The notes: generated by a model from the sequence alone, not told the origin. DNA of 64,000 nt from Candidatus Dadabacteria bacterium (GCA_026708565.1 JAPOUR010000005.1:32273-96272), one strand, 5' to 3'; counted from the stretch's first letter, positions 7,150 through 43,288 are shown. Program-made: numbers and translations.

Positions 7150-7181
7150 CATACGCAATGCGCCTTGTGATAATTGAAGGT

Positions 7182-7403
7182 ATGAGCAAGCAATCCCATT
7201 ACAAAGCGATAATCAAACAGGACGGCGACTGGTGGATAGGCTGGATACAGGAAATTTCCGGCGTGAACTGTCAGGAGGCGACCCGCGAGGAACTTATAGA
7301 GACGCTGAGAGTTTCCCTGTCTGAAATGCTTGAGTTGAACCGCTCTCAGGCGGTCAGCAGTGCGGGCGGCGGAAGTTTTGAAGAAGTTGAAATAGTGGTG
7401 TGA
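7182..7403 (+). CDS. HicB-like antitoxin (UPF0150 fold, no C-terminal DNA-binding domain)
   Basis: YKAIIKQDGDWWIGWIQEISGVNCQEATREELIETLRVSLSEMLE resembles the HicB N-domain. GAAGG RBS before the ATG at 7182. Confidence 0.5.
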   Translation: MSKQSHYKAIIKQDGDWWIGWIQEISGVNCQEATREELIETLRVSLSEMLELNRSQAVSSAGGGSFEEVEIVV

Positions 7404-7465
7404 AACGGCGGAAAGCCGAGAAAGAAAAATCAACAAAGTGTGAAAAGATCTCAAGGAGGAAAAGT

Positions 7466-7780
7466 TCTTTGAATAAAGAGTATACAGAATTGATCGAAAA
7501 ACTAAAATCGCTTAAAAGATACGAAGGAAAGCGTGGTGAATCTAATCCTACAAGAAAGTTATATAGGGAGCATCTGGAGATGAAAAAAGCCCTCAAAGAT
7601 ACAATGATGAAAGAAGGACTTCACAAAGGTACTGTTAAACACTTTATGTTGGAACAGATTAAAAAAGAATATGGCATGTCTTGTGAGGACATAAAGAAAG
7701 AAAAGAAGAATAATGAATCTACTAAAGATGCTATAATACGTCTCTTCTTATCTCTCACTCAACCCTCTCCAAGTGAATAA
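7466..7780 (+). CDS. Hypothetical Lys-rich small protein (weak HicA-like resemblance)
   Basis: AT-rich. AGGAGG RBS 9 nt before the TTG at 7466. ELIEKLKSL...GLHKGTVKHF loosely resembles HicA, but the GSHH motif is absent. Confidence 0.3.
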   Translation, partial: SLNKEYTELIEKLKSLKRYEGKRGESNPTRKLYREHLEMKKALKDTMMKEGLHKGTVKHFMLEQIKKEYGMSCEDIKKEKKNNESTKDAIIRLFLSLTQPSPSE

Positions 7781-8240
7781 CCTTGTAGTTGATTTTGTAT
7801 TTATAAAAGTCAATGTTAGGCACAACCGACAAAGCTCGTTTGATTTTCTTGTTTGTCTTTGAGGCTACTATTGCTCCCCTGACTTCCTGACCCTTCTTTG
7901 CCAGTTTCTCTTTCACAAACCCCATATACCTTTGGCATTGCCCGATAACCGTATCGGAAGTCCCGCCCCGTTTCAGTTCAATCACAAGAAAGGTCTTTTT
8001 GTCTTTGCTAATGGCAAGGATGTCAATCTTCCCTCCCGTGTCCGTAGGGTATTGCTTGCCGGTTCGCCCTTTCTTGTCTCTGTATATGTCAAAGTTTTCA
8101 GCAAAGACAGTGTGCTTCCAGTTCTTCACAAGGAAGTTTTCCATCTGTGACTCTTTCGGGAAATGGACTCTGTGAGCCTCTGCGGGTGTGGCGGAGAGGA
8201 GACAGAGGAAGAGAACAATGGCTGTCAGTTTTTTCTTCAT
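7755..8240 (-). CDS. NucS/DUF91-like PD-(D/E)xK nuclease with N-terminal signal peptide
   Basis: Signal peptide MKKKLTAIVLFLCLLSATPAEA. GGKIDILAISKDKKTFLVIELKRG...IGQCQRYMGF matches the D...ExK...QxxxY nuclease core. AT-rich. Confidence 0.5.
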   Translation of the reverse strand: MKKKLTAIVLFLCLLSATPAEAHRVHFPKESQMENFLVKNWKHTVFAENFDIYRDKKGRTGKQYPTDTGGKIDILAISKDKKTFLVIELKRGGTSDTVIGQCQRYMGFVKEKLAKKGQEVRGAIVASKTNKKIKRALSVVPNIDFYKYKINYKVIHLERVE

Positions 8241-8250
8241 GATGCAGACC

Positions 8251-8583
8251 CTACCATTCTATTCCATAATTAAGTATCGTAAAAGACTTGTGGTTCTGTT
8301 TCATAACCACATTAATATGAAATATCATTTTTTTTGTCTGTGAATACATTCGCAAACTGCCTTTTATACAAGATTGTCCCTTGCATTCTATCTTTTGATA
8401 CTTTGTATATAAAAGCATATAAGTAATCTGATCTGCTACTTCTTCCAGACTTTCACTATATCTCACAAGCAATTCTGCTTCGAAGCATGCGGGGTAAATA
8501 TAGGTATAGGTGTTATCATAAATAGGATCTTGAACAAGAATAGAGTAGCATGTTTGTCCGTATTTTTCTTTTTCTAAAATCAT
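8251..8583 (-). CDS. Hypothetical protein (AT-rich)
   Basis: ORF only. Lies in the low-GC pocket between the NucS-like gene and the ankyrin gene. Confidence 0.3.
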   Translation of the reverse strand: MILEKEKYGQTCYSILVQDPIYDNTYTYIYPACFEAELLVRYSESLEEVADQITYMLLYTKYQKIECKGQSCIKGSLRMYSQTKKMIFHINVVMKQNHKSFTILNYGIEW

Positions 8584-9467
8584 GGTTGAAGCAACCTTGT
8601 GATTTCGTAAAAATCAGGATGGTCTTTATGCGCCGCTTGCCATGCATCAAAAGCCGTAACTCCGTCGACACTTGCCCGTTTATCTGCTCCCGCTTTCAGC
8701 AATGCCTGTATTGCTTCGGTTTGGCCATGAATTGCCGCAATCATCAGAGCCGTGAGTCCATAATTCTCCCTTGCCTCTATATTAACCCCTGCTTTAAGCA
8801 ATGTCTGTATTGCTTCTATGTGCCCGCCGCCGAACAACGCTGCCATCAGAACCGTTGCGCCTAAATGATTTTTTGCCTCTATATCCGCTCCCGCTTTCAG
8901 CAATACTTGTATTGCTTCGGTTTGGCCATGAAATGCCGCCTGCCTTAGAGCCGTCCCGCCGCTTATACTCTCTCTTGCCTCTATATCCGCTCCCGCTTTC
9001 AGCAATGCCTGTATTGCTTCGGTTTGGCCGCCACCTGTCGCAAGCATTAAAGCCGTCAAATCGCTTTCACTCTCTCTTGCTTCTATATCTGCTCCCGCTT
9101 TCAGCAATGCCTGTATTGCTTCGGTTTGGCCGCCACCTGTCGCAAGCATTAAAGCCGTCAAATCGCTTTCACTCTCTCTTGCTTCTATATCTGCTCCCGC
9201 TTTTAGCAACTCTCTTACTGCTTCTGTCTGCCCGAGGATCGCCGCAATCATCAGAGCCGTCCAGCCATCGTTATCCTTTGCCTCTATGTCCGCACCCGCT
9301 TTTAGTAACTCTCGTATTGCTTTAGAGTTTCCGTCCCTCGCCGCAAACATTAGAGGTGTCCAACCTCTCTCATTCACCTCGGTTTGCGACCCATAAAGAC
9401 CCGCATAGTAAGCCGCACCCATTAAAACGACAACCGCTATGGCAAACCCGTAAAATGCTCTGTTCAT
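8580..9467 (-). CDS. Ankyrin-repeat protein with N-terminal TM/signal anchor
   Basis: About 7 ANK repeats (TALM.AA..G..E.v..LLKAGADIEA). Hydrophobic N-terminus. Confidence 0.8.
   Translation of the reverse strand: MNRAFYGFAIAVVVLMGAAYYAGLYGSQTEVNERGWTPLMFAARDGNSKAIRELLKAGADIEAKDNDGWTALMIAAILGQTEAVRELLKAGADIEARESESDLTALMLATGGGQTEAIQALLKAGADIEARESESDLTALMLATGGGQTEAIQALLKAGADIEARESISGGTALRQAAFHGQTEAIQVLLKAGADIEAKNHLGATVLMAALFGGGHIEAIQTLLKAGVNIEARENYGLTALMIAAIHGQTEAIQALLKAGADKRASVDGVTAFDAWQAAHKDHPDFYEITRLLQP
8995..9198. repeat. Perfect tandem duplication, 2 x 102 bp, inside the ankyrin gene
   Basis: Two identical 102-bp units. Each encodes ARESESDLTALMLATGGGQTEAIQALLKAGADIE. Confidence 0.8.
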
Positions 9468-9551
9468 CTCTCAATCCTTCCCGTCATCGGTTTGTTGGAC
9501 GGCGAAACCCTAACGGCAATCTCCCCGTTTTGTCAACGGCACATCTCCCCA

Positions 9552-9586
9552 TCCCCTCTGGATTCCGTGCGGAGCACGGAATGACG
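9552..9586. repeat. REP-like hairpin element copy B: CCCCTCTGGATTCCGTG-CGGAG-CACGGAATGACGG
   Basis: Same element as 1964-1999, with compensatory T>G / A>C changes that keep the stem. Partial direct repeat cccatccctctg at 9606-9617. Confidence 0.5.
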
Positions 9587-9637
9587 GGGAAAGCAATACT
9601 GCTTCTCCCCCATCCCTCTGCCTCTAACCGCCAAACA

Positions 9638-12963: not shown

Positions 12964-14442
12964 ATGAACCTTGCCCAGCTTACAGCAAACGCCTCTCTGA
13001 TAGCCCCGGAGATTGCGCTGTGCATTGCGGGACTTGTCCTCGCCGTTGCCGCGCCCGTATTGAAAACCGTCTCTGAACAGAGGCGCGGGACGATCTTCTG
13101 CGCCGTTGCGCTTATCGGGTTTGCCATCGCCTTTGTTCTCAACGCGGACAGGTTCGGCGGCGCGGAGAGCGCGTTTTCCGGCACTCTTTACCTTGATGAT
13201 TTCTCCGCTTTTTTCAACTCCATATTTCTTGCAAGCGCGGCGGCGGCGTCCCTTTTTGCCGCCTCTTACATAAGAGAATCCGAGCGGCTTGGAGAGTTTC
13301 TCGCCCTTGTCTCGCTGTGTGTGCCGGGGATGATGCTGATGGCCGAATCGGTTGAGTTCGTGTCGCTTTTCGTTTCGTTTGAAGTGGTTTCAATCTGCGC
13401 CTACGCCCTTGCCGGATTTTCGTCCCGAACCGTTGCCCCCGCCGAGGCGGGGATTAAGTATCTGGTTACGGGAGGGTTTTCCTCCGCCGTTATGCTTCTG
13501 GGCATCGCGCTGCTTTACGGCGGGACGGGAAGTCTGGAATTCGGCGTCATATCGGGCGCGTTTGAAGCCTCGCCGTCAAATCCGATGTTGCTTGCGGGCG
13601 CGGCTCTTGTGTTTACGGGCTTCATATTCAAGGCGGGCGCCGCCCCCCTTCATCAGTGGATTCCCGATGTTTACCACGGCGCGCCCATGCCTGCGACCGC
13701 TTTTATGTCCGTGGGCGTCAAGGTGGCAGCGATTGCGGTTCTGGCAAGGTTTGTCGTGGAAATAGGGTCAGCCGGGCAGTGGGCGCTTCCGGTGATAGTC
13801 AGCGCGGTTGCCGCGGTAACCATGCTTGCCGGAAACATATCGGCCATAGCGCAGAGCAATGTGAAGAGAATGCTCGCATATTCAAGCGTCGCCCATGTGG
13901 GGTATGTTCTGGTCGGTGTCGCCGCCTATTTGTCCGGGGACGACCCGGCGGGGCTTTCCGGCGTTTTCTATTACTCTTACGCCTATGCGGCGGTCAGCCT
14001 CGGCGCGTTCGGGTTGCTGTCCGTTCTTGGAAGAGACGGAAACGAATACCAGACTTTCGGCGACATATCAGGGCTGTGGCGGACAAAACCCGCCGCCGCA
14101 TTGGCTCTTGCGGTGTTTATGTTTGCGCTCGCGGGAGTTCCTCCGACCATAGGTTTTTTTGCAAAATACCGGGTCTTCCTTCCGGCGGCGCAGGAGGGAT
14201 TGCACTTTCTGGTGGTGTTTGCCCTTGTCAACAGCGTGGTCTCCGCCTACTACTATTTGAAGGTTGCGGTGTTCGCGTTTATGAAGCCGGTGTCAAAACA
14301 GCAGACCGCCGGATGGAAAGCGGGGCTCGGAGCGCGCGCGGCGGTCGCCTTATTGTGCGTTGTAACCCTGCTGCTGGGGATTGCGCCGTTTGACACGGCG
14401 GGGCTTGCCGAATCCGCCGCGCGGGCGCTGACTTTACGATGA
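12964..14442 (+). CDS. nuoN: NADH-quinone oxidoreductase subunit N (NuoN / Mrp antiporter-like)
   Basis: 492 aa, 14 TM. Matches the NuoN-type antiporter-like subunit. Confidence 0.8.
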   Translation: MNLAQLTANASLIAPEIALCIAGLVLAVAAPVLKTVSEQRRGTIFCAVALIGFAIAFVLNADRFGGAESAFSGTLYLDDFSAFFNSIFLASAAAASLFAASYIRESERLGEFLALVSLCVPGMMLMAESVEFVSLFVSFEVVSICAYALAGFSSRTVAPAEAGIKYLVTGGFSSAVMLLGIALLYGGTGSLEFGVISGAFEASPSNPMLLAGAALVFTGFIFKAGAAPLHQWIPDVYHGAPMPATAFMSVGVKVAAIAVLARFVVEIGSAGQWALPVIVSAVAAVTMLAGNISAIAQSNVKRMLAYSSVAHVGYVLVGVAAYLSGDDPAGLSGVFYYSYAYAAVSLGAFGLLSVLGRDGNEYQTFGDISGLWRTKPAAALALAVFMFALAGVPPTIGFFAKYRVFLPAAQEGLHFLVVFALVNSVVSAYYYLKVAVFAFMKPVSKQQTAGWKAGLGARAAVALLCVVTLLLGIAPFDTAGLAESAARALTLR

Positions 14443-16661
14443 GCAACAAAAAAGGAGGATTTAAAAAAGAGGCGGCGGCTGTCGGCGTCTTTCTGCTCGG
14501 AGCAATAACGGCGGCGGGGCTTGTTGCGGGCGGCTCGCTTTCGCCGTTCGGCGGAGGCGCGGTCGGATGGGTTGGCAAAACAGTATCGGGGACGCTGTCT
14601 TCCGCATTCGGGGTCGCCTCCCTGCTGATTCCCGCCGGGTGCGCCTACCTGTGCGTCCGCCTTGTATTTTTCAGCGTGAAGGGAAAGGCGCTTCTGAAAG
14701 ACGCCGCCGCCGCCATAGGGCTTCTGGCGTCAACCGCGCTTTTGTCCGGTCTGGCTCTTGAGGGGGTTTTGGTAAACCACCTCACTCAGGACGGCGCGGG
14801 CGGGAAACTGGGACGGGAGATTCTACGCTTCACAGTGGATACGGTTGGTGTGTTCGGCTCTTATGTGGTCGGGCTTTCCGTTGTTTCCGTGTGCCTTGTG
14901 TTTCTTGCAAGAACCAGCCTGCGGACGGTTCTGTCATCAGGTTTTAACGCCGTTGCAAAAACATTGAGCGTGTCTCTGAAAGCCGTCGTTTCCGTTCTTT
15001 TGCGCCTGTCGGAAATGCTGCGGAGCGCGGCAGTGTTTGCCGCCGGTCTGGTGAAAAAGTTCCGCGCAAAAACCCCGCCCTCCCCGCCGGTAATCAAGGA
15101 AGAAAAACAACCCGCGCCCGTTGTCCCCTCCGGCGAAGAAAAGGCGGCGGAAGCCCCGAAACTGGTCATCAAAAAACAGGATAAGAAAAATCCCAAACCG
15201 GCGGAAAAAGACCCCGCCCCCCGGCCTGAAGGGCGCAGTTTTGCCCTTCCTCCCATAAACCTGCTGGAAAGGCCGGAAGGCGGAAAAACGGAGATTGACA
15301 AGGAAAGCGCCTACGGGAGCGCGCGCCTGATTGAGGAAAAACTCCAGAGTTTCGGCGTTTCGGGAAAAGTAACGGAGATCAGGCCCGGCCCCGTTATCAC
15401 CATGTTTGAATACAAGCCCGCCTCCGGGGTCAAGGTGAGCAAGATCGCCTCGCTTGAAGATGACCTTGCGATGAACCTCAGCGCGAGCAGCATAAGAATC
15501 ATATCCCCCATTCCGGGCAGGGATGTGGTGGGCATTGAAGTCCCCAACAACCGGCGGGAGAAGGTATGCCTGAGGGAAATTATAGAAAACCCCGAATTTG
15601 CGGCAAATAAATCGCTTCTTACCATAGCGGTCGGCAAAGACATATCCGGCGCGCCCTATTACACCGACCTTGCCGCCGCCCCTCACCTGATGATAGCGGG
15701 AACGACCGGGTCGGGCAAAAGCGTGCTTCTGAACTCGCTGCTCGCAAGCCTGTTTTACAAAACGGGGCCGGACAGGCTGCGCCTCCTTATGATAGACCCG
15801 AAAATGCTTGAGTTTGCCATTTATGAAGACATCCCCCACCTGCTCCACCCCATTGTTACAGAGCCGAGAAAAGCAATCGCCGCCCTCAAGTGGGCGGTCG
15901 CCGAGATGGAGGGCAGGTACAAGGTTCTTTCCCAAAAAGGCGTGAGAAACATAGATTCATACAACTCCGCAATAGAGCGGGATGAGGGTCCCGGCTCGCC
16001 GCAAATTATGCCCTACATTGTAATTCTGATAGACGAACTTGCGGATTTGATAATGTCCGCCGCGTCCGACACGCGGGACTGCATTATCAGGATAGCGCAG
16101 AAGGCGCGCGCGGCGGGAATACACCTTGTTGTTGCCACTCAGCGCCCGTCCGCGGATGTGGTTTCGGGACTTTTGAAAGCGAACATTCCGGCAAGAATCT
16201 CGTTTCTGGTCTCATCAAAGGTGGACTCAAGGATTATCCTTGACGCTCAGGGAGCGGAAAGTCTGTTAGGCAAGGGAGACATGCTTTATCTCAAGCCCGG
16301 AACCGGCGCGCTGGAGAGAATTCAGGGCGCGCTGATAACGGACGAGGAGCGGGAGAGAATTGTTGATTTTCTCAAATCACAGGGCGAGCCCGCGTTTGAC
16401 AGCGCGGTTGCGGACGCCATCAACAAACCTGAGGGCGAGCAGGGTGATTCCAGCACTGAGGAGCGGGACGAGATGTATGAGCAGGCGCTTGAAATAGTCA
16501 CCGAAGCGGGGCAGGTGTCAATATCAATGCTTCAGCGGCGGCTTAAGATTGGCTACAACCGCGCGGCGACCATTGTTGAACAGATGGAGCGCGAGGGGAT
16601 TGTGGGAGAGCCGCAGGGAGCGGGAAAACCGAGAGAGGTTATTTCGCCGAGCGAGGGGTAA
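14439..16661 (+). CDS. ftsK: DNA translocase FtsK
   Basis: N-terminal TM helices. Pro/Lys-rich linker. Walker A GTTGSGKS. C-terminal gamma winged-helix domain. Confidence 0.9.
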   Translation: MSNKKGGFKKEAAAVGVFLLGAITAAGLVAGGSLSPFGGGAVGWVGKTVSGTLSSAFGVASLLIPAGCAYLCVRLVFFSVKGKALLKDAAAAIGLLASTALLSGLALEGVLVNHLTQDGAGGKLGREILRFTVDTVGVFGSYVVGLSVVSVCLVFLARTSLRTVLSSGFNAVAKTLSVSLKAVVSVLLRLSEMLRSAAVFAAGLVKKFRAKTPPSPPVIKEEKQPAPVVPSGEEKAAEAPKLVIKKQDKKNPKPAEKDPAPRPEGRSFALPPINLLERPEGGKTEIDKESAYGSARLIEEKLQSFGVSGKVTEIRPGPVITMFEYKPASGVKVSKIASLEDDLAMNLSASSIRIISPIPGRDVVGIEVPNNRREKVCLREIIENPEFAANKSLLTIAVGKDISGAPYYTDLAAAPHLMIAGTTGSGKSVLLNSLLASLFYKTGPDRLRLLMIDPKMLEFAIYEDIPHLLHPIVTEPRKAIAALKWAVAEMEGRYKVLSQKGVRNIDSYNSAIERDEGPGSPQIMPYIVILIDELADLIMSAASDTRDCIIRIAQKARAAGIHLVVATQRPSADVVSGLLKANIPARISFLVSSKVDSRIILDAQGAESLLGKGDMLYLKPGTGALERIQGALITDEERERIVDFLKSQGEPAFDSAVADAINKPEGEQGDSSTEERDEMYEQALEIVTEAGQVSISMLQRRLKIGYNRAATIVEQMEREGIVGEPQGAGKPREVISPSEG

Positions 16662-16707
16662 TGTATGTCTTTGTTTCAGTATAAGCCATGTGGTTGACCC
16701 ATGAAAA

Positions 16708-17442
16708 TCAACTAGAACTTCTTTTAAGGTGTTTGCGGATGACATCTTTTACATAGTCTGGCACTTCCTTCTGGGCTTTGGAAACTTCTTTCATGAGAAA
16801 CTCATACTCTTTGACTTCCTCGCCAGACCATAAGATGTCAAGCCTCCGCATGTCACGCATCGCGATATGCTTATAAGATTCTGGGTAGGCCCAGTAGCAC
16901 TGTTGGCATGTCTCAGCCTTCTTGATTGTCCAATTAGCACAATTCTCACAACTCCATGATTTCGCCCTGTTTGCAGACGCGCATAGAAGCATATAGTCAT
17001 CCATATTACTTGAAAGATCACTTTGGTCTCCCACAATTTCAAAAGGGATTCTGTGATCAATTTGCAATTCCCTTGGGGGAAATGATTCAAGGTAAATATT
17101 GCACCGTGCGCCGTGCTTCTCAATCAGTGTATTTTTCATGCTTGAAGAAAACGCCGTACGACCAGAAAGTTGTGCAGACCGGATTTCTGATGGGTCTCCA
17201 AACTTATATGCAGCGATTTTCCTTCCATCCGAACCGATGGCACGGAAAGTTTTAATAGGCACACCTTGTTCTCTCACATCTCTTATAGCACGAGGAGGAT
17301 GGTTGTAGCCATAAATGTCCTTCAATTCCTCGGTTGTTACCTGACCATGTTTGAGGATATGGTCAATAACTGTTTTGGGACGCTTGGCATTAATACTCTT
17401 CAGCAAAGCAAGAAACTTCTTGGGGTAACTTTGCTTAGTCAT
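16708..17442 (-). CDS. HNH endonuclease (putative type II restriction endonuclease)
   Basis: LQIDHRIPFEIVGD...LLCASANRAKS HNH core with flanking CxxC pairs. Co-operonic with the Dam-family MTase. Confidence 0.65.
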   Translation of the reverse strand: MTKQSYPKKFLALLKSINAKRPKTVIDHILKHGQVTTEELKDIYGYNHPPRAIRDVREQGVPIKTFRAIGSDGRKIAAYKFGDPSEIRSAQLSGRTAFSSSMKNTLIEKHGARCNIYLESFPPRELQIDHRIPFEIVGDQSDLSSNMDDYMLLCASANRAKSWSCENCANWTIKKAETCQQCYWAYPESYKHIAMRDMRRLDILWSGEEVKEYEFLMKEVSKAQKEVPDYVKDVIRKHLKRSSS

Positions 17443-18449
17443 GCAAATATAATCTCTTGTTGCTTTCTATTACTAACACACAAAGCGGGGCCTTCATACC
17501 GTAGTCTATTCACCAAAGGATCAGACAAGTACAGGGATTCAATGGTCTGATGGTTTTTGCCCAACAATGTCGCTTGACTGGATCTGCCTGCATAGATTGT
17601 GGTGTGTTGAAGGCGGAGGTGTTTCGGGAGTGGTTTTCCATGCATTCTTTCACCAGTAATACCATCGTAGCTTATGATGTATGAGATGTTTCTTTTGTTC
17701 ATAACCGCAAGTGCATCCACGAAATCATCGTAAGACAAGCCATTGATGTATCTATGGTCCCTTGTAAACGATGTGCCTTGATAGGGTGGGTCCATGTAAA
17801 CCAAATCGTTCTCGCCAGCCCTTTCCACTATCACTTGAAAGTCCATTGCAGATGTGCTGGTTTTTCCAGCCAAAAGTGCTGACACGCCCAATATGTTTTG
17901 TCTCATTGTGTGGGGTTTCATTCCTGAACGCCTGTTATCCGCACTCTGATTGAATTTGCCGTCAGAACTGTATCTGATAGAGCCTTTTACAATCCGTGCC
18001 AATAAGTAAAGCAAGTAGCAAGGTTTGTGTGCGATGTTGAACTCATCCCTCACTTTCAGAAAGTAAGACTTTCTATCTGAATGTTGCTCACTCCACAGTC
18101 TTTCATATTCGTCACACAAGTCTTTTGGTCGCTCTAATATCTCCACCCATAAGTCCATCAGGGGTTTATTCAAATCATTTAGTGAAATTGTTTCCATCAT
18201 TCCGTAAGCGGCAGCGGCAATAGAGATAGCCCCGGCGCCACAAAACGGCTCTATTAAGCATTTGGTATCAGACGGAAAGTAAGGGAGGATGTACTTAGCA
18301 ATGCCTCGCTTGCTTCCCTGATACGGAAATGGGTGTGGTAACTTGCGTAAGTTGCAGTACGGGTCAATCTCTTGTAATTGATACAAGGGTTGATGCGACA
18401 TGTCTTTGCTATTGAGTTCTTTCATGTGTCTTACTTGAAATTGTAACAT
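17439..18449 (-). CDS. Dam-family (D12 class) N6-adenine DNA methyltransferase
   Basis: FPYQGSKRGIAKYILPYFP and EPFCGAGA (SAM-binding). DPPY catalytic motif (VYMDPPYQG). Confidence 0.8.
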   Translation of the reverse strand: MLQFQVRHMKELNSKDMSHQPLYQLQEIDPYCNLRKLPHPFPYQGSKRGIAKYILPYFPSDTKCLIEPFCGAGAISIAAAAYGMMETISLNDLNKPLMDLWVEILERPKDLCDEYERLWSEQHSDRKSYFLKVRDEFNIAHKPCYLLYLLARIVKGSIRYSSDGKFNQSADNRRSGMKPHTMRQNILGVSALLAGKTSTSAMDFQVIVERAGENDLVYMDPPYQGTSFTRDHRYINGLSYDDFVDALAVMNKRNISYIISYDGITGERMHGKPLPKHLRLQHTTIYAGRSSQATLLGKNHQTIESLYLSDPLVNRLRYEGPALCVSNRKQQEIIFA

Positions 18450-18596
18450 AAATGACCTGATACGCTACTGTGGAAAACAGTACAAGGCGATCTGGCAGAT
18501 TCTGGCCTTACCACTTGGGTGTCAATTGAATTCAGTTGATATATTGAGTTTCTACCTTGGTTTCTTGCTTATAATTGTTCAACATAAGGAGATACT
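18450..18596. promoter_or_regulatory. AT-rich divergent promoter region between the MTase and SIR2 genes, with a near-palindrome CAATTGAATTCAGTTG
   Basis: 14/16 palindromic around GAATTC. Strong RBS AAGGAG 8 nt before the ATG at 18597. Confidence 0.3.
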
Positions 18597-21500
18597 ATGC
18601 AATTTGTAAAAGGTGGTCCTGACATTCCAGAACAGTTGCTACAGGCGCACGAAGATGGGCAAGTAGCCTTTTTCTGTGGGGCCGGGATTTCTTACCCAGC
18701 AGGCTTGCCTGGCTTTGCCGACCTAGTGAAACAACTCTATGATAACTTGGTGGGCACACGCAATGAGGTGCAACAATCGGCAATAGAGGCCAAGAAGTTT
18801 GATACTGCGATAGGCTTATTGGAAGCAGATATTGCTGGTGATCGCGGGAAAGTAAGAAGGGAACTGGCAAGTATTCTAACCCCAGACATCAGTGACCCGA
18901 AGAGTGCCGAGAAAGCAACCGCGACTCACGAAGCCCTGTTGACGCTAGGCAGGAACCGCGAGGGACAAATGCGGTTGGTCACTACTAACTTTGACCGTCT
19001 TTTTGAGGAAGTAATCGCCACAAAATCACTGTCGGTCAACCGCTCTCAGGCACCACAGTTGCCAATTCCGAAGAACAGATGGGACAGGCTGGTGTATCTA
19101 CATGGTCTGTTGCCCGATACCAACCCACCCATGCCAAACGATCTGGATAGTCTGGTTGTCTCCAGTGGCGACTTTGGGTTGGCCTATCTTACGGAACGTT
19201 GGGCAGCGCGATTCGTGAGCGAACTGTTTCGCAACTATATTGTATGCTTTGTCGGTTACAGCATCGGCGACCCAGTATTGCGCTATATGATGGACGCTCT
19301 TGCTGCTGACCGTTTGCTCGGTGAGTCGCCACCGGAAATGTTTGCTTTTGGTAGTTACTCCAAAGGCAAGGAAGAGAAGGTCTACAACGAATGGCGGGCC
19401 AAAAATGTTACACCCATTCTCTATCGGGAGCACAATCGTCACTCCTACCTTCACAGAACACTGCGGGATTGGGCCGACAAATACAGAGATGGTGTGGGCG
19501 GGAAAGAAAGCATTGTTGTGCGATATGCAATGACACGTCCATCGAAGAGCACCAAGCAAGATGACTTTGTTGGTCGTATGCTATGGGCACTGAGCGACCA
19601 GACTGGACTCCCAATGAAGCGCTTCGCCGAGTTTAATCCGGTTCCACATCTGGATTGGCTCTTGGAACCTTTTAGTGAAGACCGCTACAAACATGTTGAC
19701 TTGGAGCGCTTTGGTGTTTCTTCTGGAACAGAGGTTGATAACGACCTTAAATTCAGTCTGGTTTCCAGACCATCACCTTACAGTCTGGCACCATGGATGG
19801 TCATCTCTGATACTGGTTCTCTTGGTAGTAAATGGGATAACATTATGCAACACTTGGCACGGTGGTTGGTACGTCATCTTGATGACCCTGCTCTGGTGCT
19901 TTGGTTGGCTAAACAGGGTGGTCAACTGCATAAGGACCTGATCCGGGTGGTAGAACAATGCTTGCACAAACTTGCTAAGTATGAGCAAGACGGTGATACG
20001 ACCACGATAGACCGTATTCGTAACAATGCACCCAAGGCAATTCCCGGGCCACACATGCGAACGCTATGGCGGCTTCTGCTTGCTGGGCGCGTTAAATCGC
20101 GTAAATCGCAGACACAAAGCAATGATTTCTACCAATGGCATAAGCGCTTTGAGCGAGACGGACTCACCACAACTTTACGGTTTGAACTACGTGAGATACT
20201 TACACCACGAGTATCTATAAGTGAACCACTTTTCCGTTTGCCAACAGGTGATAGCGAAAATCAAAAGCCAGAGTGTCTAAGCGAGCTTGTTAGTTGGGAG
20301 ATTGTGCTTTCGGCAGGCCCTATCCATTCCAAATTGAATGACTTGAATGATAACGAGCGCGAGCGTTGGACTGCGGCCTTACCGGAATTGCTGACCGATT
20401 TTAGCGCCTTATTGCGCGATGCCTTGGATTTGATGCGTGAACTTGGTGGCGCGGACAACAAGAGCGACCCGTCTTTTGAGTATCAACCTTCAATCAGTAA
20501 GCACCGGCAGAATAGGGGATTTCACGAATGGACTTCTTTGATAGACCTAGCTCGGGACGCATGGTTGGCCACAGCCGAGCAATCACCGCAACATGCATTA
20601 CTCGTGGCAGAGGCATGGTGGCAAACGCCCTATCCTCTTTTTAAGCGTCTCGCATTTTTTGCCGCTACACAGGGCGGTGTAGTAACCCATCGCCGCGCAC
20701 TTGACTGGTTGCTCGCAGATGAAAAGTGGTGGTTGTGGTCAGATAAAACCCGGCGTGAATCCATACGACTGCTGGCTGTCTTGGCTCCACAAATTGATGA
20801 ACCGATGTTGCGAGAACTTGAGCAGGCGGTCCTTGCCGGGCCACCCCTCAACATGTTCAGAGACAATATGACCCCGGAAGACAGGGACATTGTTGACAAA
20901 AAAATCTGGCTACGACTGGCAGAGATGGTTCAATCTGGTGCTGGTTTGAGCTCCACAGGCCAAGAACGTCTGAATGCGCTCTCTGTCCAGCACCAACTTG
21001 CTGAAGATGAACGTGATGAATTTCCAGACCGGATGGAGAGCGGTGTTTGGGGTGGACGAAAGCCTTGGCTACAGTTTGAACCGATACCGAGTGGCGACCT
21101 AGATGGGTTGGTAAACTACTTGACAGAAAACCACCATCCTGCCGAAGGAAGAGAGGATGACTGGCAAGAACTTTGCAAAAATGATTTTGAGAACACAGCA
21201 CAAGCCTTACACCATTTTGCCAGAAAAAACATTTGGCTTGACCAACGCTGGGGGGACGCTTTACGGGTCTGGTCATCAGATGAAAAAGTGCGCGAGACTT
21301 TATGGCGATCCGTCGCACCCGTATTAACCACAGCTCCCGATGACTTTCTACAGAACAAGGATGTCACCTACGGAGTTGGTTGGTGGTTGAAAGCCATTGC
21401 CAAAACCTTTGAGGGCCATGAAGAAGAGTTTCTAATCCTCACGCGCCGTATCCTGAGTCTGAAATATCAGGATAATGCCAAGACCGACGACCCTGTCAAC

Positions 21501-22439
21501 CTCGCCATCAATCATCCAGTAGGCTATGTAACGCAGGCGTTGTTAGATTGGTGGTATCGGCAGACCTTGGAAGATAAACAAGGTCTGCCGGAGAAACTCA
21601 AACCCATATTCACTGAACTTTGTGATACCCAAACCAGTCAGTTTCGACATGGCCGTGTTTTGTTAGCGCACCATGTTATCAATTTGTTTCGCGTAGACCG
21701 CGAGTGGACAATACAGCACTTGTTGCCGTTATTTAACTGGCAACAGTCAGAAACAGAAGCACGGGCAGTCTGGGAAGGTTTCCTGTGGTCACCCCGCCTA
21801 TACTACCCTCTGATGGAGGAACTCAAGTCGGACTTTCTCAATACTGCAACCCACTATGAGGATCTGGAAAACCACGGTAAGCAGTATTATGCGCGGATTC
21901 TCACCTTTGCGGCTCTTGACCAGAGTGGCAGTAGCACATTCACTCAAACTGAACTTAAGCGAGCTACTGACGCGCTCTCTACAGACGGGTTATGTGAAGT
22001 AGCCCAAGCACTCGTGATAGAGTTGGAAAGCGCAAGTGAGCAACGCACTAACTATTGGACAAACCGAGTCGTCCCATACCTGAAATCCATTTGGCCAAAA
22101 GACAAGGACAAAATTACTCCCGACATTTCCACAAGCCTCGGCAGTCTATGTGTCTCGGCGTCGGAAAAGTTTCCGGATGCGCTTGACCTTCTACGTCACT
22201 GGCTTCAACCGTCAGAAGGACACAGTTTTCTAGTCCATAAACTTTGTGATTCTGACTTGTGTAAAGAGTTTCCAGAGGAATCTCTGGAATTCTTGAGACT
22301 GGTCATCAACGATAATAGTGAATGGCCGCCCTATGAACTTAAAGACTGTCTTGAGGATATAAAAACTAATAATCCTGCATTGGAAAAAGATCTTCGGTAT
22401 GAAAATTTAATGACTTATCTGCGTCAGCACCCCATATAG
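18597..22439 (+). CDS. SIR2-like (SIR2_2) domain protein, 1280 aa, with a ~980-aa helical C-terminal region; DSR-like candidate anti-phage NADase
   Basis: N-terminus: FFCGAGISYPAGLPGFADLV, RLVTTNFDRLFEE, LVYLHGLL...LVVSSGDF. No P-loop. Lies in the low-GC island next to the R-M pair. Confidence 0.7.
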   Translation: MQFVKGGPDIPEQLLQAHEDGQVAFFCGAGISYPAGLPGFADLVKQLYDNLVGTRNEVQQSAIEAKKFDTAIGLLEADIAGDRGKVRRELASILTPDISDPKSAEKATATHEALLTLGRNREGQMRLVTTNFDRLFEEVIATKSLSVNRSQAPQLPIPKNRWDRLVYLHGLLPDTNPPMPNDLDSLVVSSGDFGLAYLTERWAARFVSELFRNYIVCFVGYSIGDPVLRYMMDALAADRLLGESPPEMFAFGSYSKGKEEKVYNEWRAKNVTPILYREHNRHSYLHRTLRDWADKYRDGVGGKESIVVRYAMTRPSKSTKQDDFVGRMLWALSDQTGLPMKRFAEFNPVPHLDWLLEPFSEDRYKHVDLERFGVSSGTEVDNDLKFSLVSRPSPYSLAPWMVISDTGSLGSKWDNIMQHLARWLVRHLDDPALVLWLAKQGGQLHKDLIRVVEQCLHKLAKYEQDGDTTTIDRIRNNAPKAIPGPHMRTLWRLLLAGRVKSRKSQTQSNDFYQWHKRFERDGLTTTLRFELREILTPRVSISEPLFRLPTGDSENQKPECLSELVSWEIVLSAGPIHSKLNDLNDNERERWTAALPELLTDFSALLRDALDLMRELGGADNKSDPSFEYQPSISKHRQNRGFHEWTSLIDLARDAWLATAEQSPQHALLVAEAWWQTPYPLFKRLAFFAATQGGVVTHRRALDWLLADEKWWLWSDKTRRESIRLLAVLAPQIDEPMLRELEQAVLAGPPLNMFRDNMTPEDRDIVDKKIWLRLAEMVQSGAGLSSTGQERLNALSVQHQLAEDERDEFPDRMESGVWGGRKPWLQFEPIPSGDLDGLVNYLTENHHPAEGREDDWQELCKNDFENTAQALHHFARKNIWLDQRWGDALRVWSSDEKVRETLWRSVAPVLTTAPDDFLQNKDVTYGVGWWLKAIAKTFEGHEEEFLILTRRILSLKYQDNAKTDDPVNLAINHPVGYVTQALLDWWYRQTLEDKQGLPEKLKPIFTELCDTQTSQFRHGRVLLAHHVINLFRVDREWTIQHLLPLFNWQQSETEARAVWEGFLWSPRLYYPLMEELKSDFLNTATHYEDLENHGKQYYARILTFAALDQSGSSTFTQTELKRATDALSTDGLCEVAQALVIELESASEQRTNYWTNRVVPYLKSIWPKDKDKITPDISTSLGSLCVSASEKFPDALDLLRHWLQPSEGHSFLVHKLCDSDLCKEFPEESLEFLRLVINDNSEWPPYELKDCLEDIKTNNPALEKDLRYENLMTYLRQHPI

Positions 22440-22477
22440 AGAGTAGAAATCAGTTACCAGAACTCTTGAATAGACAA

Positions 22478-23686
22478 TCACCTGTCAACCTCTCCGAGCA
22501 CTATGTCTATGCTTCCCAGAGCCGCCACCACATCCCCCACAAAAGCGCCTTCAAGCATCGGCGCGAGCGCCTGAAGATTGACAAATGACGGGCCCCGGAC
22601 GCGCATGCGGTAGGGCTTTTTCGTGCCATCGCTCACAAGGTAGTATCCAAGTTCACCCTTGGGGTTCTCAACCGCGCAATACGCCTCGCCCGCGGGCGGG
22701 GAAAAGCCTTCGTAAACCAAAACAAAGTGGCGTATCAGCGACTCCATCTTTGTATAAACCTGCTCTTTTTCGGGAAGAACAATCTCCGGCAAGTCGGCAA
22801 TGTAGCGGCCGTCCGGCAGGTTGTCTATCGCCTGCTTTATAATGCGGACGCTCTGCCTACACTCCTCCATCCGGCAGAGGTAACGGGAATAGACGTCCCC
22901 GTCTTCCCCCACCACAACATCAAAATCGTAATTCTCATACCCCAAATACGGCTTCGCCTTCCGCACATCAAACTCCACACCGCTTCCCCGAAGAGTGGGA
23001 CCCGACAAACCGAGATCAATCGCGTCCTCCGCGCTTATCTGCGCCACGCCCTTCGTTCTTTGAAGCCATATACCGTTTTTTGTCAGAAGTTTATCAACCT
23101 CATCAAGGGTTTGAGGGAAATCTTTAACAAAGTTGTTCACAGCATCGGCAAACCCTTCCGGCAGGTCTTTGGGGAGTCCTCCGACCCTCGGATAGGAGGT
23201 TGTCATTCTCGCTCCGCAAACCATCTCAAGGATGTCATAAATCCTTTCCCGCTCTTTGAAGCAATACATAAAGGAACTGAACGCGCCCAAATCAAGCGCG
23301 CCCGTCCCTATGCCGACCATGTGGGACTCAATCCTGCCGAGTTCAAACATTATGACCTCTGCCGCTTTTGCCCTCTCCGGGATTTCGTCTTCTATACCGA
23401 GCAACTTCTCAACCGCGAGAACAAATCCTATGTTGTTGCAGATTGCCGCAAGGTAGTCCATCCTGTCCGTGTAGGGGAGGCACTGCTGGTAGGTGATGTT
23501 TTCGCACAGTTTTTCTATGCCTCTGTGCAGGTATCCGATGTGAGGCACAACATTTTTTATGACCTCGCCGTCAAGCCCCAGCACTATGCGCAAAACCCCG
23601 TGCGTGGCGGGATGCTGGGGGCCCATGTTCAGAATCATTTCGGCGTCGCCATTGCCGCCGTCCGTAACAAACTGAACCTTTTCCAT
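22478..23686 (-). CDS. nuoD: NADH-quinone oxidoreductase subunit D
   Basis: MEKVQFV...LNMGPQHPATHGVLR. Start at MEKVQ, 12 nt after the nuoC stop. Confidence 0.9.
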   Translation of the reverse strand: MEKVQFVTDGGNGDAEMILNMGPQHPATHGVLRIVLGLDGEVIKNVVPHIGYLHRGIEKLCENITYQQCLPYTDRMDYLAAICNNIGFVLAVEKLLGIEDEIPERAKAAEVIMFELGRIESHMVGIGTGALDLGAFSSFMYCFKERERIYDILEMVCGARMTTSYPRVGGLPKDLPEGFADAVNNFVKDFPQTLDEVDKLLTKNGIWLQRTKGVAQISAEDAIDLGLSGPTLRGSGVEFDVRKAKPYLGYENYDFDVVVGEDGDVYSRYLCRMEECRQSVRIIKQAIDNLPDGRYIADLPEIVLPEKEQVYTKMESLIRHFVLVYEGFSPPAGEAYCAVENPKGELGYYLVSDGTKKPYRMRVRGPSFVNLQALAPMLEGAFVGDVVAALGSIDIVLGEVDR

Positions 23687-23699
23687 CAAAAACCCCTCA

Positions 23700-24212
23700 T
23701 CAGAAGTTTCCCTCTTTGAGCGCCTTTTCAAACGAGCGCTTTGCGGGTTCTCTGTCTCTGACGTCAAAATCCTTGCGGAGGGGAAAGCCCTCAAAATCTT
23801 CGGGCAGCAGGATTCTTCTCATGTCCGGGTGTCCGTTAAAAACGATTCCGAACATATCAAACACCTCTCTTTCAAGCCAGTCCGCCCCCTTCCACACGGA
23901 GGAAACCGTTTCCAGCCGCAACATGTCCGCATCCAGCGGAACTTTGAGAAAAACCCTCATCTCCTCGTTATACCGGGAGTCAAAGCGGACGGTGTTATAG
24001 ATAACTTCAAACCGCGCCCCGGCTCTTTCGCCCAGATAGTCCACGGCGGTGATGTCTGAAAGGTAGGCAAAGCCGCGCTCCAGTTTAAGGTTGAGGCACG
24101 CCTCTTTAACGGCTTCCCTCCGTATCACAAAAAAAGGCTCGCCCCCCCTCATCTCTCCGCTTGAGAGCGAGAACGGGCCGAGTGTGTTCTTAACTGACTC
24201 AAGAACGCTCAT
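23700..24212 (-). CDS. nuoC: NADH-quinone oxidoreductase subunit C
   Basis: 30-kDa subunit motifs ([17 protein letters not shown]). Confidence 0.85.
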
Positions 24213-24694
24213 TTCAGCGGAGCGCCTTCGTTTTCTATCTTTGCCTGTATCTTCATAACCGCATCTATCAGCGCTTCGGGGCGCGGGGGACAGCCGCCCA
24301 CATAAACATCAACGGGCAGAAACTCGTCTATTCCCTGAACCACCGCATAACTGTCAAACGGGCCGCCGCCGCAAGTGCATGAGCCCATCGCTATAACCCA
24401 CTTGGGCTCCGGCATCTGGTCGTAAATTCTCCGGCACACCGACGCCATTTTGTAGGTTATAGTGCCCGAAACTATCATGAGGTCCGCCTGACGCGGCGAG
24501 AATCTTGCGACCTCCGCCCCGAAACGCGCCATGTCATAGCGGGAGGCGAACGCTCCCATCATCTCTATCGCGCAACATGCCGTGCCCAGCGGCATGGGCC
24601 AGAGGCTGTTTTTTCTGGACCAGTTCACAAACTCGGAAAGTTTGGTTGAAACAAAGCCGTCTCCGCCTAAAATGCCGCCGCCGCTTACCGCCAA
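24209..24694 (-). CDS. nuoB: NADH-quinone oxidoreductase subunit B
   Basis: Fe-S ligand Cys motifs ([27 protein letters not shown]). Confidence 0.9.
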
Positions 24695-25044
24695 TCCAGC
24701 ACTCCTTTGAACAGAACATACAGATAGCCCGCCACTATGACGGCGAGAAACGCCCCAAGTTCAACCGCCGCCACCGCGCCGAGTTCGCGGGCGACCATTG
24801 ACCACGCAATCAGAAAAACCGCCTCTATGTCAAACAGGATAAAAAGCGCGCCGATGATGTAGTAGTTCACCGGAAACTTCCCGGCGGCTTCGCCAATCGG
24901 CGTTATGCCCGATTCGTAGGGGGAGGATTTCTCAGTATTCGGTTTGTCTTTTCCGAGGTAAACGGAAAAAAAAAGCAGGACAGCCGCAAGTCCCGCCGTC
25001 AGAACCCAGACAATAACCACCGGAGCGTAGGCGTCGCCGTCCAT
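24685..25044 (-). CDS. nuoA: NADH-quinone oxidoreductase subunit A (start may extend to 25155)
   Basis: YESGI.P.G...F...YY and [12 protein letters not shown] motifs. Internal Met gives the typical ~119 aa. Confidence 0.7.
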
Positions 25045-25211
25045 TACGGCAACAAGGTTAAGGGACGGGCGGGGATTGTCAAGAAGTGGGCGGGCGGTTA
25101 CGCCCCACCCGTTTTGAATGGCGCTTTGAGACAAGCGGAGTGAAACAGTGAACACTTGACCTGAAACCCTGTCAAAAAAAACCTCTCATTCCGGTATAAT
25201 CCCCCCGCCAA

Positions 25212-42538: not shown

Positions 42539-43288
42539 CTATTTCTTCTTCAACAACTGCTGAATCCTCTGTCTTGCTCGTTGTTGACCCATTCTAAGAG
42601 CCTTGTGAACCTCATCTTTATTTTCCCAATTATAAATTCGTCCAGATCTACCGGCTAACCCATAAACGGTGTAACCTTTGATGTCTCGCTCTCGCACATC
42701 AGCACCATTGGCAATAAAAGTAACTATAACATCTGGATTTGGTTCATAAGGGTTAGTTATTGCCTCCATCAGTGGCGTTTTTCCTGCATCATCTTTTGCA
42801 TCCACATACGCCCCTGCTTCAAGAAGTATAATGATAGTTTCGGGCAACACTTTGTGGGAAGTAATGCCCGCATAATGCAAAGGCGTACCACCATATACAT
42901 CCCTTGCTTTGACATCCGCACCACTGTCAATTAAGGACTGGATAACTTGAGGATTAGGATTGGCAATACCTTCCATTAATGCCGTTGAAGCGTCCGAATA
43001 CTGTCCCTTGGTCTTGGCGTTGACCTCTACACCTTTCTTGACAAGGAATTTCACAACATCGGGATAGGGGGTATACTTTGCTGCGTAGAACAAGGCAGTC
43101 TTCCCATCTCTATCTTTCGCCTTTACTTTCGCCCCTCCCTTTATGGCTTTCTTAATATCTTCAAGCGTTGCGGTTTCCATAAACTGATAGTCCAGCAACT
43201 TATCTTTCTTTGTTGCTTCCGCAAGTGATGAAAGCCCAAAGAGGACAATTAGGGCAATGGCAAGTAGTCTTTTCATAGCAAACCACAC
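42539..43288 (-). CDS. Ankyrin-repeat protein with signal peptide
   Basis: Signal peptide MKRLLAIALIVLFGLSSLA. About 5 ANK repeats. AT-rich. Confidence 0.75.
   Translation of the reverse strand: MWFAMKRLLAIALIVLFGLSSLAEATKKDKLLDYQFMETATLEDIKKAIKGGAKVKAKDRDGKTALFYAAKYTPYPDVVKFLVKKGVEVNAKTKGQYSDASTALMEGIANPNPQVIQSLIDSGADVKARDVYGGTPLHYAGITSHKVLPETIIILLEAGAYVDAKDDAGKTPLMEAITNPYEPNPDVIVTFIANGADVRERDIKGYTVYGLAGRSGRIYNWENKDEVHKALRMGQQRARQRIQQLLKKK

Follow-up and report, generated by a model that had tools for sequence, protein, structure and literature searches.

Between the 3′ ends of ftsK and nuoD in a Candidatus Dadabacteria genome lies a 5,820-bp segment that is very probably a horizontally acquired, integrase-free defence island, present in one strain lineage and combining two known anti-phage modules. 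The segment occupies positions 16658–22477 of the window, by which we mean the whole 64,000-nucleotide stretch of DNA that was analysed (GCA_026708565.1, JAPOUR010000005.1:32273–96272), and it encodes a predicted type II restriction-modification (R-M) pair and a protein of the defence-associated sirtuin 1 (DSR1) family. This reading is carried by the foreign composition of the segment, empty sites in contigs of the same species, the identities of the genes, the recurrence of each module elsewhere and the intact catalytic residues. The island and its immediate flanks are arranged as follows, in window coordinates.

14439–16661, plus strand: ftsK (host flank), with Pfam FtsK domains, of which the gamma domain extends to residue 735 of 740
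16658–22477, no strand assigned: inserted segment (defence island), 5,820 bp, delimited by blastn homology limits and by its outlying composition
16708–17442, minus strand: predicted type II restriction endonuclease (REase), 244 residues; PADLOC REase_II, PDLC03566, 6e-56
17439–18449, minus strand: predicted D12-class (alpha) N6-adenine DNA methyltransferase (MTase), 336 residues as the longest open reading frame (ORF)
18450–18596, no strand assigned: divergent spacer separating the R-M operon from the DSR1 gene, 147 bp
18597–22439, plus strand: DSR1, 1,280 residues
22478–23686, minus strand: nuoD (host flank), Pfam Complex1_49kDa 1e-119, intact through its stop codon

The composition of the segment departs sharply from that of its surroundings. 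GC content runs at 0.53–0.62 through the upstream flank (a nuoN-like gene and ftsK), falls to 0.42–0.45 at 16.75–18.75 kb, stands at 0.48–0.53 over the DSR1 gene to 22.2 kb, and returns to 0.51–0.60 in nuoDCBA. Measured against 94 windows of 5.82 kb, none of them overlapping the island, the GC content of 0.469 compares with a mean of 0.542 (sd 0.016, minimum 0.499; z = −4.5), and the tetranucleotide profile lies at an L1 distance of 0.412, compared with a mean of 0.126 and a maximum of 0.191 (z = 12.7). GC content at third codon positions (GC3) is 0.43 in the REase gene, 0.47 in the MTase gene and 0.49 in the DSR1 gene, as against 0.57–0.69 in 14 flanking host genes. These values bear out the abrupt fall in GC content and codon usage described in a first-pass annotation made from the sequence alone. 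The palindromes TCGA, CTAG, AGCT and GTAC provide a second, independent signal: 20 of the 52 such sites in the window fall within the island, which makes up 9% of its length, giving 3.4 sites per kb compared to 0.55 per kb elsewhere (approximately 6-fold, Poisson P = 2.5 × 10−10). Overall, the break in composition is real and well outside chance.

Contigs from the same species show what the locus looks like without the segment. An exact look-up of the 402-residue NuoD protein returned 15 contigs with three different neighbours. In five of these (L089, a 1.2-Mb contig; L091, GCA_026708365.1; L093, GCA_026708425.1; L095; and L098), the site is empty, with the ftsK stop codon TAG, the bases CCC and the nuoD stop following one another so that only a 3-bp spacer separates the two genes. 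Their flanks have 97.4–99.1% nucleotide identity with the window, and these contigs therefore belong to the same species. By blastn against these contigs, homology ends on the left at 16657, or at 16660 if a 3-bp indel in the GAGGGAGGG run is permitted, and restarts on the right at 22478, within about 5 bp of the limits of 16662 and 22477 proposed in the first-pass annotation. The closest other genome sampled in a species-representative collection (L002; FtsK 67% and NuoD 87% identical) shares the gene order of the window (nuoN-ftsK / nuoDCBA-GT2-pdxA) and has an empty ftsK–nuoD spacer of 22 bp. More distant Dadabacteria carry lolA, sometimes with small genes, at the position of the island, and R-M or DSR1 genes were found at ftsK|nuoD in 0 of the 30 other Dadabacteria loci examined.

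These comparisons bear on several earlier proposals. The first-pass annotation had placed the segment where the 3′ ends of ftsK and nuoD converge and had called it horizontally acquired and strain-variable, and the two stops lying side by side in the empty-site contigs, together with the foreign composition, agree with it on each count. It had also suggested asking whether the two genes adjoin in relatives, as they do both in the same-species contigs and in L002, and had held that the same three genes at the same locus of related genomes, with equal GC content, would speak for ancestry; the comparison returned no such locus. Its picture of a landing spot between two convergent terminators did not survive, as the stops at the empty site are 3 bp apart and neither junction has a predicted terminator-like hairpin (folding z-scores 0 to +1).

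The junctions themselves record a replacement of host sequence. Some 4–10 bp of the empty site (AGGGTAGCCC) have given way to the insert, and ftsK ends in ...SPSEG-TAA with the island and in ...SPGEGG-TAG in the empty-site strains. The new TAA stop is supplied by the insert, which takes FtsK from 741 to 740 residues, with the change confined to the tail after the gamma domain. In line with the first-pass annotation, none of the three island genes is a recombinase, integrase or transposase according to the ORF listing and profile searches, and a repeat search over 16400–22800 returned only short chance matches as candidate boundary or att repeats. Comparison of the junction sequences with the empty-site contigs revealed no target duplication, and no tRNA or Rfam element lies in or beside the island, the nearest tRNAs being at 45.5 kb. 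Two candidate attachment sites were considered and rejected. A 15-nucleotide copy of the nuoD end within the DSR1 gene (21492 and 22481), tried as an att site, occurs in a number that matches chance expectation. Insertion at dif by Xer, in the manner of an integrative mobile element exploiting Xer (IMEX), was suggested by a left end (GGTAATGTATGTC) that loosely resembles the dif core, but its arms mismatch when judged by eye, and nothing dif-like is present at the right end or in the empty site. The marks of an integrase- or transposase-borne island, namely a recombinase, att or direct repeats, and a tRNA or other specific target, are thus absent. With no recombinase, no repeat and no target duplication, the insertion was most likely not site-specific. 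We propose that the DNA entered the 3-bp spacer between the convergent ftsK and nuoD stops by illegitimate, non-site-specific recombination, an event that would have overwritten the ftsK stop codon, and that later spread, if any, would have proceeded by homologous recombination through the flanks.

The third neighbour is a different cargo at the same junction. Contig L092, with flanks approximately 97% identical to the window, carries an AT-rich ORF of 139 residues (L092 2574–2993) whose GTG start overlaps the nuoD stop, and it has a different ftsK tail, so that each filled allele, whether the R-M pair with DSR1 or the 139-residue gene, rewrites the last ftsK codons. The ORF has weak similarity to Mrr_cat/PDDEXK (PD-(D/E)xK) nucleases (E 0.005–0.1). 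A near-repeat matching the 3′ end of nuoD (GACAGGTAA / GACAGGTGA) bounds the L092 insert, and the small Mrr-like gene is flanked by a ACCTGTCA repeat. The island allele, in turn, was recovered with 100% nucleotide identity and with both junctions covered in at least five independently assembled samples, an identity that makes the carriers one clone. As all island-bearing contigs are identical, the variability is between strain lineages approximately 2% apart and is not evidence of ongoing mobility.

The island holds exactly three genes, the number given in the first-pass annotation, and the spacers of 46, 147 and 38 bp leave no space for any more. The MTase matches Pfam MethyltransfD12 (6e-34, 118 bits) and PADLOC MTase_II (PDLC03341, 7e-84), and FCGAGA and DPPY motifs are present in its sequence. 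Against TIGR00571 it scores 111.6 bits, below the cutoff of 114.85, and against the Dam equivalog NF008152 it reaches 55.5 bits where the cutoff is 441. Its earlier description as a Dam-family enzyme is right as to the D12 class and goes too far as to the family: judged by these scores, the protein is Dam-like at the D12-class level only and is not a Dam orthologue. The ORF extends approximately 29 codons further 5′ than its homologues (307 residues), which align from residue ~37, and the true start is probably a downstream methionine, Met9 or Met17, in which case the divergent intergenic region would measure approximately 170–195 bp.

The MTase gene overlaps the REase gene by 4 bp. In all of the approximately 30 REase-related loci with upstream sequence available, the gene immediately preceding the REase gene, in the same orientation, encodes an MTase homologue, and the same M-then-R pair also occurs on small plasmids; no relative of the pair was found in IMG/VR viral contigs. 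The two genes thus appear to constitute a type II R-M operon, in which the D12-class MTase would mark adenines in a specific sequence of host DNA and the REase, translationally coupled to it, would bind through a winged helix and cut incoming DNA that lacks the mark.

The only confidently assigned domain of the REase is this N-terminal winged helix (residues ~1–88, Pfam HTH_39, 9e-6), which precedes an HNH-like nuclease module that is rich in cysteine and contains a DH...N motif. Residues D129, H130, N158, C114, C165, C168, C179 and C182 are invariant in relatives of 50–78% identity, and C154 is invariant only among relatives of at least 68% identity. The identical protein is named an HNH endonuclease by NCBI. 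The first-pass annotation had likewise called the gene an HNH REase, a label that the motif, the cysteines and the NCBI name support and that Pfam does not, since PF01844 (HNH) scores 11.5 bits over residues 124–161 (E 0.36), below the cutoff of 21.4. On the strength of the motif, the protein is likely an HNH nuclease. An AlphaFold2 model built with 28 homologues had predicted local distance difference test (pLDDT) values of 72–94 for the winged helix and below 50 over residues 89–244, and a Foldseek search of the model against the PDB found generic winged helices, with nothing at E ≤ 1e-3 and no DpnI. A profile search against PDB sequences returned no HNH match and no PDB relative, only zinc-finger-like chance matches, and no Pfam REase family matched even at E up to 10. 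Within residues 163–182 (17200–17260) we noted an invariant W-x-C-x2-C ... C-x2-C pattern with weak matches to the RanBP2-type zinc fingers of Nup153 (E 0.36–0.5); the match is probably due to chance, and the pattern suggests a small zinc ribbon beside the nuclease motif.

More than 6,500 homologues of the REase exist, the best-scoring 120 of which are 69–78% identical to it. As for specificity, palindrome statistics yielded no recognition site attributable to the R-M pair, and our searches found no characterised relative. An NlaIII/IceA-like system recognising CATG, a guess made from gene sizes, was discarded: no Pfam REase family matched, and CATG is not notably depleted.

We considered whether the REase might instead be a methylation-dependent (type IV) enzyme, with the MTase serving another role or another site, and regard this as very unlikely. 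The winged helix (wH)-HNH type IV endonucleases that depend on N6-methyladenine, such as SruGXI, are proteins of 224–283 residues and are toxic in Dam+ E. coli (Helbrecht et al. 2024, PMC11037411), and the layout of the island REase, a winged helix plus an HNH-like module in 244 residues, fits theirs in arrangement and size. Against this, a D12 MTase stands directly upstream in every relative examined, with the 4-bp overlap in the window, whereas stand-alone genes are expected for modification-dependent enzymes (PMC11037411). PADLOC, moreover, groups the REase with type II REases, and the fold search with the winged helix led to generic winged helices and not to DpnI. The constant linkage to an MTase favours classical type II behaviour over type IV.

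DSR1 matches the NCBIfam equivalog NF041818 at 1805.2 bits (cutoff 1400), with residues 1–1276 aligned to model positions 1–1263, and PADLOC Dsr1 (PDLC02183) at 1549 bits, so that the SIR2-like giant protein of the first-pass annotation can be assigned to a defined family. The SIR2 NAD+-hydrolysing (NADase) domain covers residues ~12–274 (Pfam SIR2_2, 2e-22 at 127–274). The 11 Dsr1 proteins compared all have the motifs TTNFDR (N131, D133) and YLHG (H169), and H169 aligns with the catalytic H146 of KomC, the residue mutated in PDB entry 9xvc, a solved SIR2 NADase. The long C-terminal region is the presumed sensor. In Bacillus, DSR1 depletes NAD+ on infection, transiently and without collapse of the culture (bioRxiv 10.1101/2021.12.14.472415); by analogy, the C-terminal region of the island protein would sense infection and the N-terminal SIR2 domain would then hydrolyse NAD+, starving the phage. 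The nearest homologues are 61–65% identical, belong mostly to Pseudomonadota and are encoded by genes with a GC content of ~0.65. Two homologues of 64% identity, found on four contigs, have as neighbours AbiEi, a type I R-M system, a DDE transposase, and DUF87 with an N6_N4 MTase, and DSR1 also occurs on plasmids. Taken together, its family and surroundings are those of a single-gene system that would need no obligatory partner.

The R-M pair and DSR1 also occur apart. DSR1 is absent from all of the REase-related loci that have upstream sequence, approximately 11 of which extend for 1.5 kb or more on the side where it would lie, and an R-M pair of the window type is absent from both DSR1 neighbourhoods examined. 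Because the pair and DSR1 are found separately elsewhere, the island is, as judged from its gene content, composed of two independent, separately mobile and already known defence modules. No intermediate allele with only the R-M pair or only DSR1 was present among the contigs found, and the modules may have arrived in one event or in two.

Alternatively, the three genes might form one integrated system, in which, for example, DSR1 is triggered or backed up by products of R-M cleavage. The genes are laid out divergently around a single 147-bp region, arrived as one inserted block and are alike in GC3 (0.43–0.49), and DSR1 homologues often adjoin R-M genes of other types. Yet the separate occurrence of the modules just described tells against such a system, as does the documentation of DSR1 as a single-gene system, and we give the idea very little credence. 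The intergenic region also fails to support it. An imperfect palindrome at ~18519–18542 forms a visible hairpin, with a folding z-score for the whole region of only −1.25, and related R-M cassettes have no such palindrome upstream; we therefore rejected a conserved operator between the MTase and DSR1 genes. A perfect TATAAT at 18570–18575 and an AAGGAG before the DSR1 ATG may act as promoter and ribosome-binding site, and the palindrome may act as an operator of this locus; these roles are suggested by position and motif.

Several points weigh against the main reading, in which the segment is a horizontally acquired defence island. The functions rest on homology, so that the enzymatic activities, the methylation-sensitive cleavage and the mechanism of insertion stand as predictions. 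This applies also to the REase, whose catalytic fold is predicted from a region with a sub-threshold Pfam score, pLDDT below 50 and no PDB relative. The presence and absence of the island may simply follow one clone. No close donor appeared in the collections searched, where the best matches reach 78% identity for the REase and 65% for DSR1. Finally, the DSR1 gene is itself partly purged of palindromes (observed/expected TCGA 2/10.8, GTAC 1/9.9, AGCT 5/12.3 and GATC 6/15.0), and homologous genes elsewhere are not depleted. This points to a donor under similar restriction pressure or to residence of the island for some time in the host lineage or a related one, and hence away from a very recent arrival from a distant lineage; it also points away from a fresh transfer out of the proteobacteria that hold the nearest homologues.

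The same observation could serve a reading in which this locus carried the island ancestrally and the other strains, as well as L002, lost it by precise deletion, making the pattern one of loss and not of gain. Partial depletion of the palindromes that the host avoids could mean long residence; presence and absence alone give no direction of change; and neither the window nor L002 has lolA, the gene found after ftsK in other Dadabacteria, at this position, so that the junction has a history of deletion. We nonetheless consider an ancestral island highly improbable. GC content, GC3, tetranucleotides and palindromes are all foreign, and at least five contigs from at least two strain lineages, together with L002, have tight empty junctions with intact stop codons. 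The island genes were seen in none of the 30 other Dadabacteria loci, and the carriers are a single clone, 100% identical. Horizontal acquisition accordingly remains the favoured reading. That the junctions are a chimera of metagenome assembly, joining an island from another organism to the host, is scarcely credible and is effectively excluded. In its favour, the window is part of a 91-kb metagenome contig (ENA ERZ27276908 k141_16807), and a number of short contigs are cut off precisely where the island starts or stops. Against it, sequence running across both junctions, 100% identical each time, was recovered from at least five samples, including the independent assemblies L083, L084, L085 and L088 made with different assemblers, and co-existing filled and empty alleles would give such breaks. 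The contigs concerned are L094, L096 and L097, which end at 22478; L083 and L084 start approximately 70–95 bp left of the left junction. Breaks at the island ends would be expected wherever filled and empty alleles co-exist in a sample.

The genome around the island has features of its own. It belongs to the Dadabacteria / Thermodesulfobacteriota group, and NCBI lists the identical proteins under Candidatus Dadabacteria bacterium. Outside 16658–22477, the window shows extreme avoidance of 4-bp palindromes relative to a Markov expectation (observed/expected TCGA 5/94, CTAG 2/35, AGCT 15/116, GTAC 10/68, GATC 44/171 and GGCC 132/397). The same-species contigs L089 and L091 avoid palindromes too (TCGA 0/28 and 0/26), L002 shares the avoidance of TCGA and GTAC only, and more distant Dadabacteria are normal, with observed/expected ratios of approximately 0.8–1.2. 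The pattern suggests a small clade long exposed to several restriction systems with 4-bp sites, and we find it more surprising than the island itself.

Two further strain-variable spots lie within 20 kb of ftsK|nuoD. The first is a low-GC, palindrome-rich patch at 7150–9637, between HAD hydrolase and His_Phos_1 genes, which contains small ORFs, a PD-(D/E)xK nuclease of 161 residues whose match to the candidate defence model PDC-S02 (1.3e-58) is confined to the C-terminal half of the model, a 110-residue ORF with a GC content of 0.32 and an ankyrin-repeat protein (PDC-M72A, 2.5e-42); at the same position, sister strains carry an HSDR_N/TPR gene (L089) and a HicA toxin pair (L092). The second is found between the GT2 gene and nuoA, where L089 has two extra ORFs of 194 and 180 residues (L089 5282–6420) without family matches, and where the window has a spacer of only 56 bp (25156–25211). 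Two ankyrin-repeat proteins occur in low-GC patches of the window, at 8580–9467 and 42539–43288; such proteins are often enriched in host-associated symbionts, for example those of sponges. The wider gene order around the island is conserved across Dadabacteria (window 12964–16661 and 22478–25155; L003–L030), with a nuoN-like, antiporter-type gene overlapping the start of ftsK and both converging on nuoDCBA, in which nuoC, nuoB and nuoA come after nuoD and reach 25155. In most relatives lolA follows ftsK; it is missing from that position in the window species and L002, and it was not found elsewhere within the 64-kb window.

The locus documents the gain of defence genes in a poorly studied, uncultured phylum, with filled, empty and alternative alleles drawn from natural populations, and indicates that no mobility gene is needed for defence cargo to lodge in a spacer of 3 bp where two core genes converge. 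It also adds Dadabacteria to the range of DSR1 and of a wH/HNH-like R-M family that is widespread and uncharacterised. In practice, the island offers a strain marker for the species and a source of a divergent DSR1 and R-M pair.

Both modules belong to known families, their arrangement is that of a typical defence island, and no new mechanism is involved. What is slightly unusual is the 3-bp landing junction, struck at least twice independently and with the ftsK stop rewritten, together with the complete lack of mobility functions. It would be more of a departure if ftsK|nuoD, with its three alleles, were a recurrent, recombinase-free capture site exemplifying an undescribed loading of defence cargo into tight convergent junctions, and if the REase stood for a family with an uncharacterised mode of recognition; we think this unlikely.

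Amongst known systems, the R-M pair most resembles type II systems that combine a D12/alpha-class N6-methyladenine MTase (Dam/DpnII/EcoRV-type) with an HNH-type REase. It shares with them an overlapping M-then-R operon, a D12 domain with DPPY, a REase that matches a type II model derived from PADLOC/REBASE, and a cassette that is widely transferred, including on small plasmids. It differs in that the catalytic half of its REase has no Pfam family, NCBIfam model or PDB relative and is joined to an HTH_39 winged helix, and in that its MTase is not a Dam orthologue; the REase family, with its more than 6,500 members, would form a large and structurally uncharacterised group of wH/HNH-like type II enzymes. 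The wH-HNH type IV enzymes resemble the island REase in two-domain layout and size range, but they are mostly stand-alone, whereas the island REase family is always paired with an MTase. The DSR1 protein shares with its family (Gao et al. 2020; Garb et al. 2021/2022, bioRxiv 10.1101/2021.12.14.472415) the plan of a large single protein with an N-terminal SIR2 NADase, an alignment over its full length that clears the NCBIfam cutoff, a conserved catalytic Asn and His, and a neighbourhood of defence genes; it differs in coming from a Dadabacteria metagenome-assembled genome, in being 61–65% identical to its nearest homologues and in its GC content of 0.49 compared to ~0.65. At the level of the locus, the closest parallel is with the flexible-genome defence islands and integration hotspots (Makarova et al. 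2011, cited in PMC11037411), with which this one shares unrelated defence systems at a strain-variable position between core genes and cargo that differs from strain to strain, and from which it differs in having no integrase, tRNA or att site and in occupying a 3-bp spacer between convergent, essential-type genes, one of whose stop codons it has rewritten.

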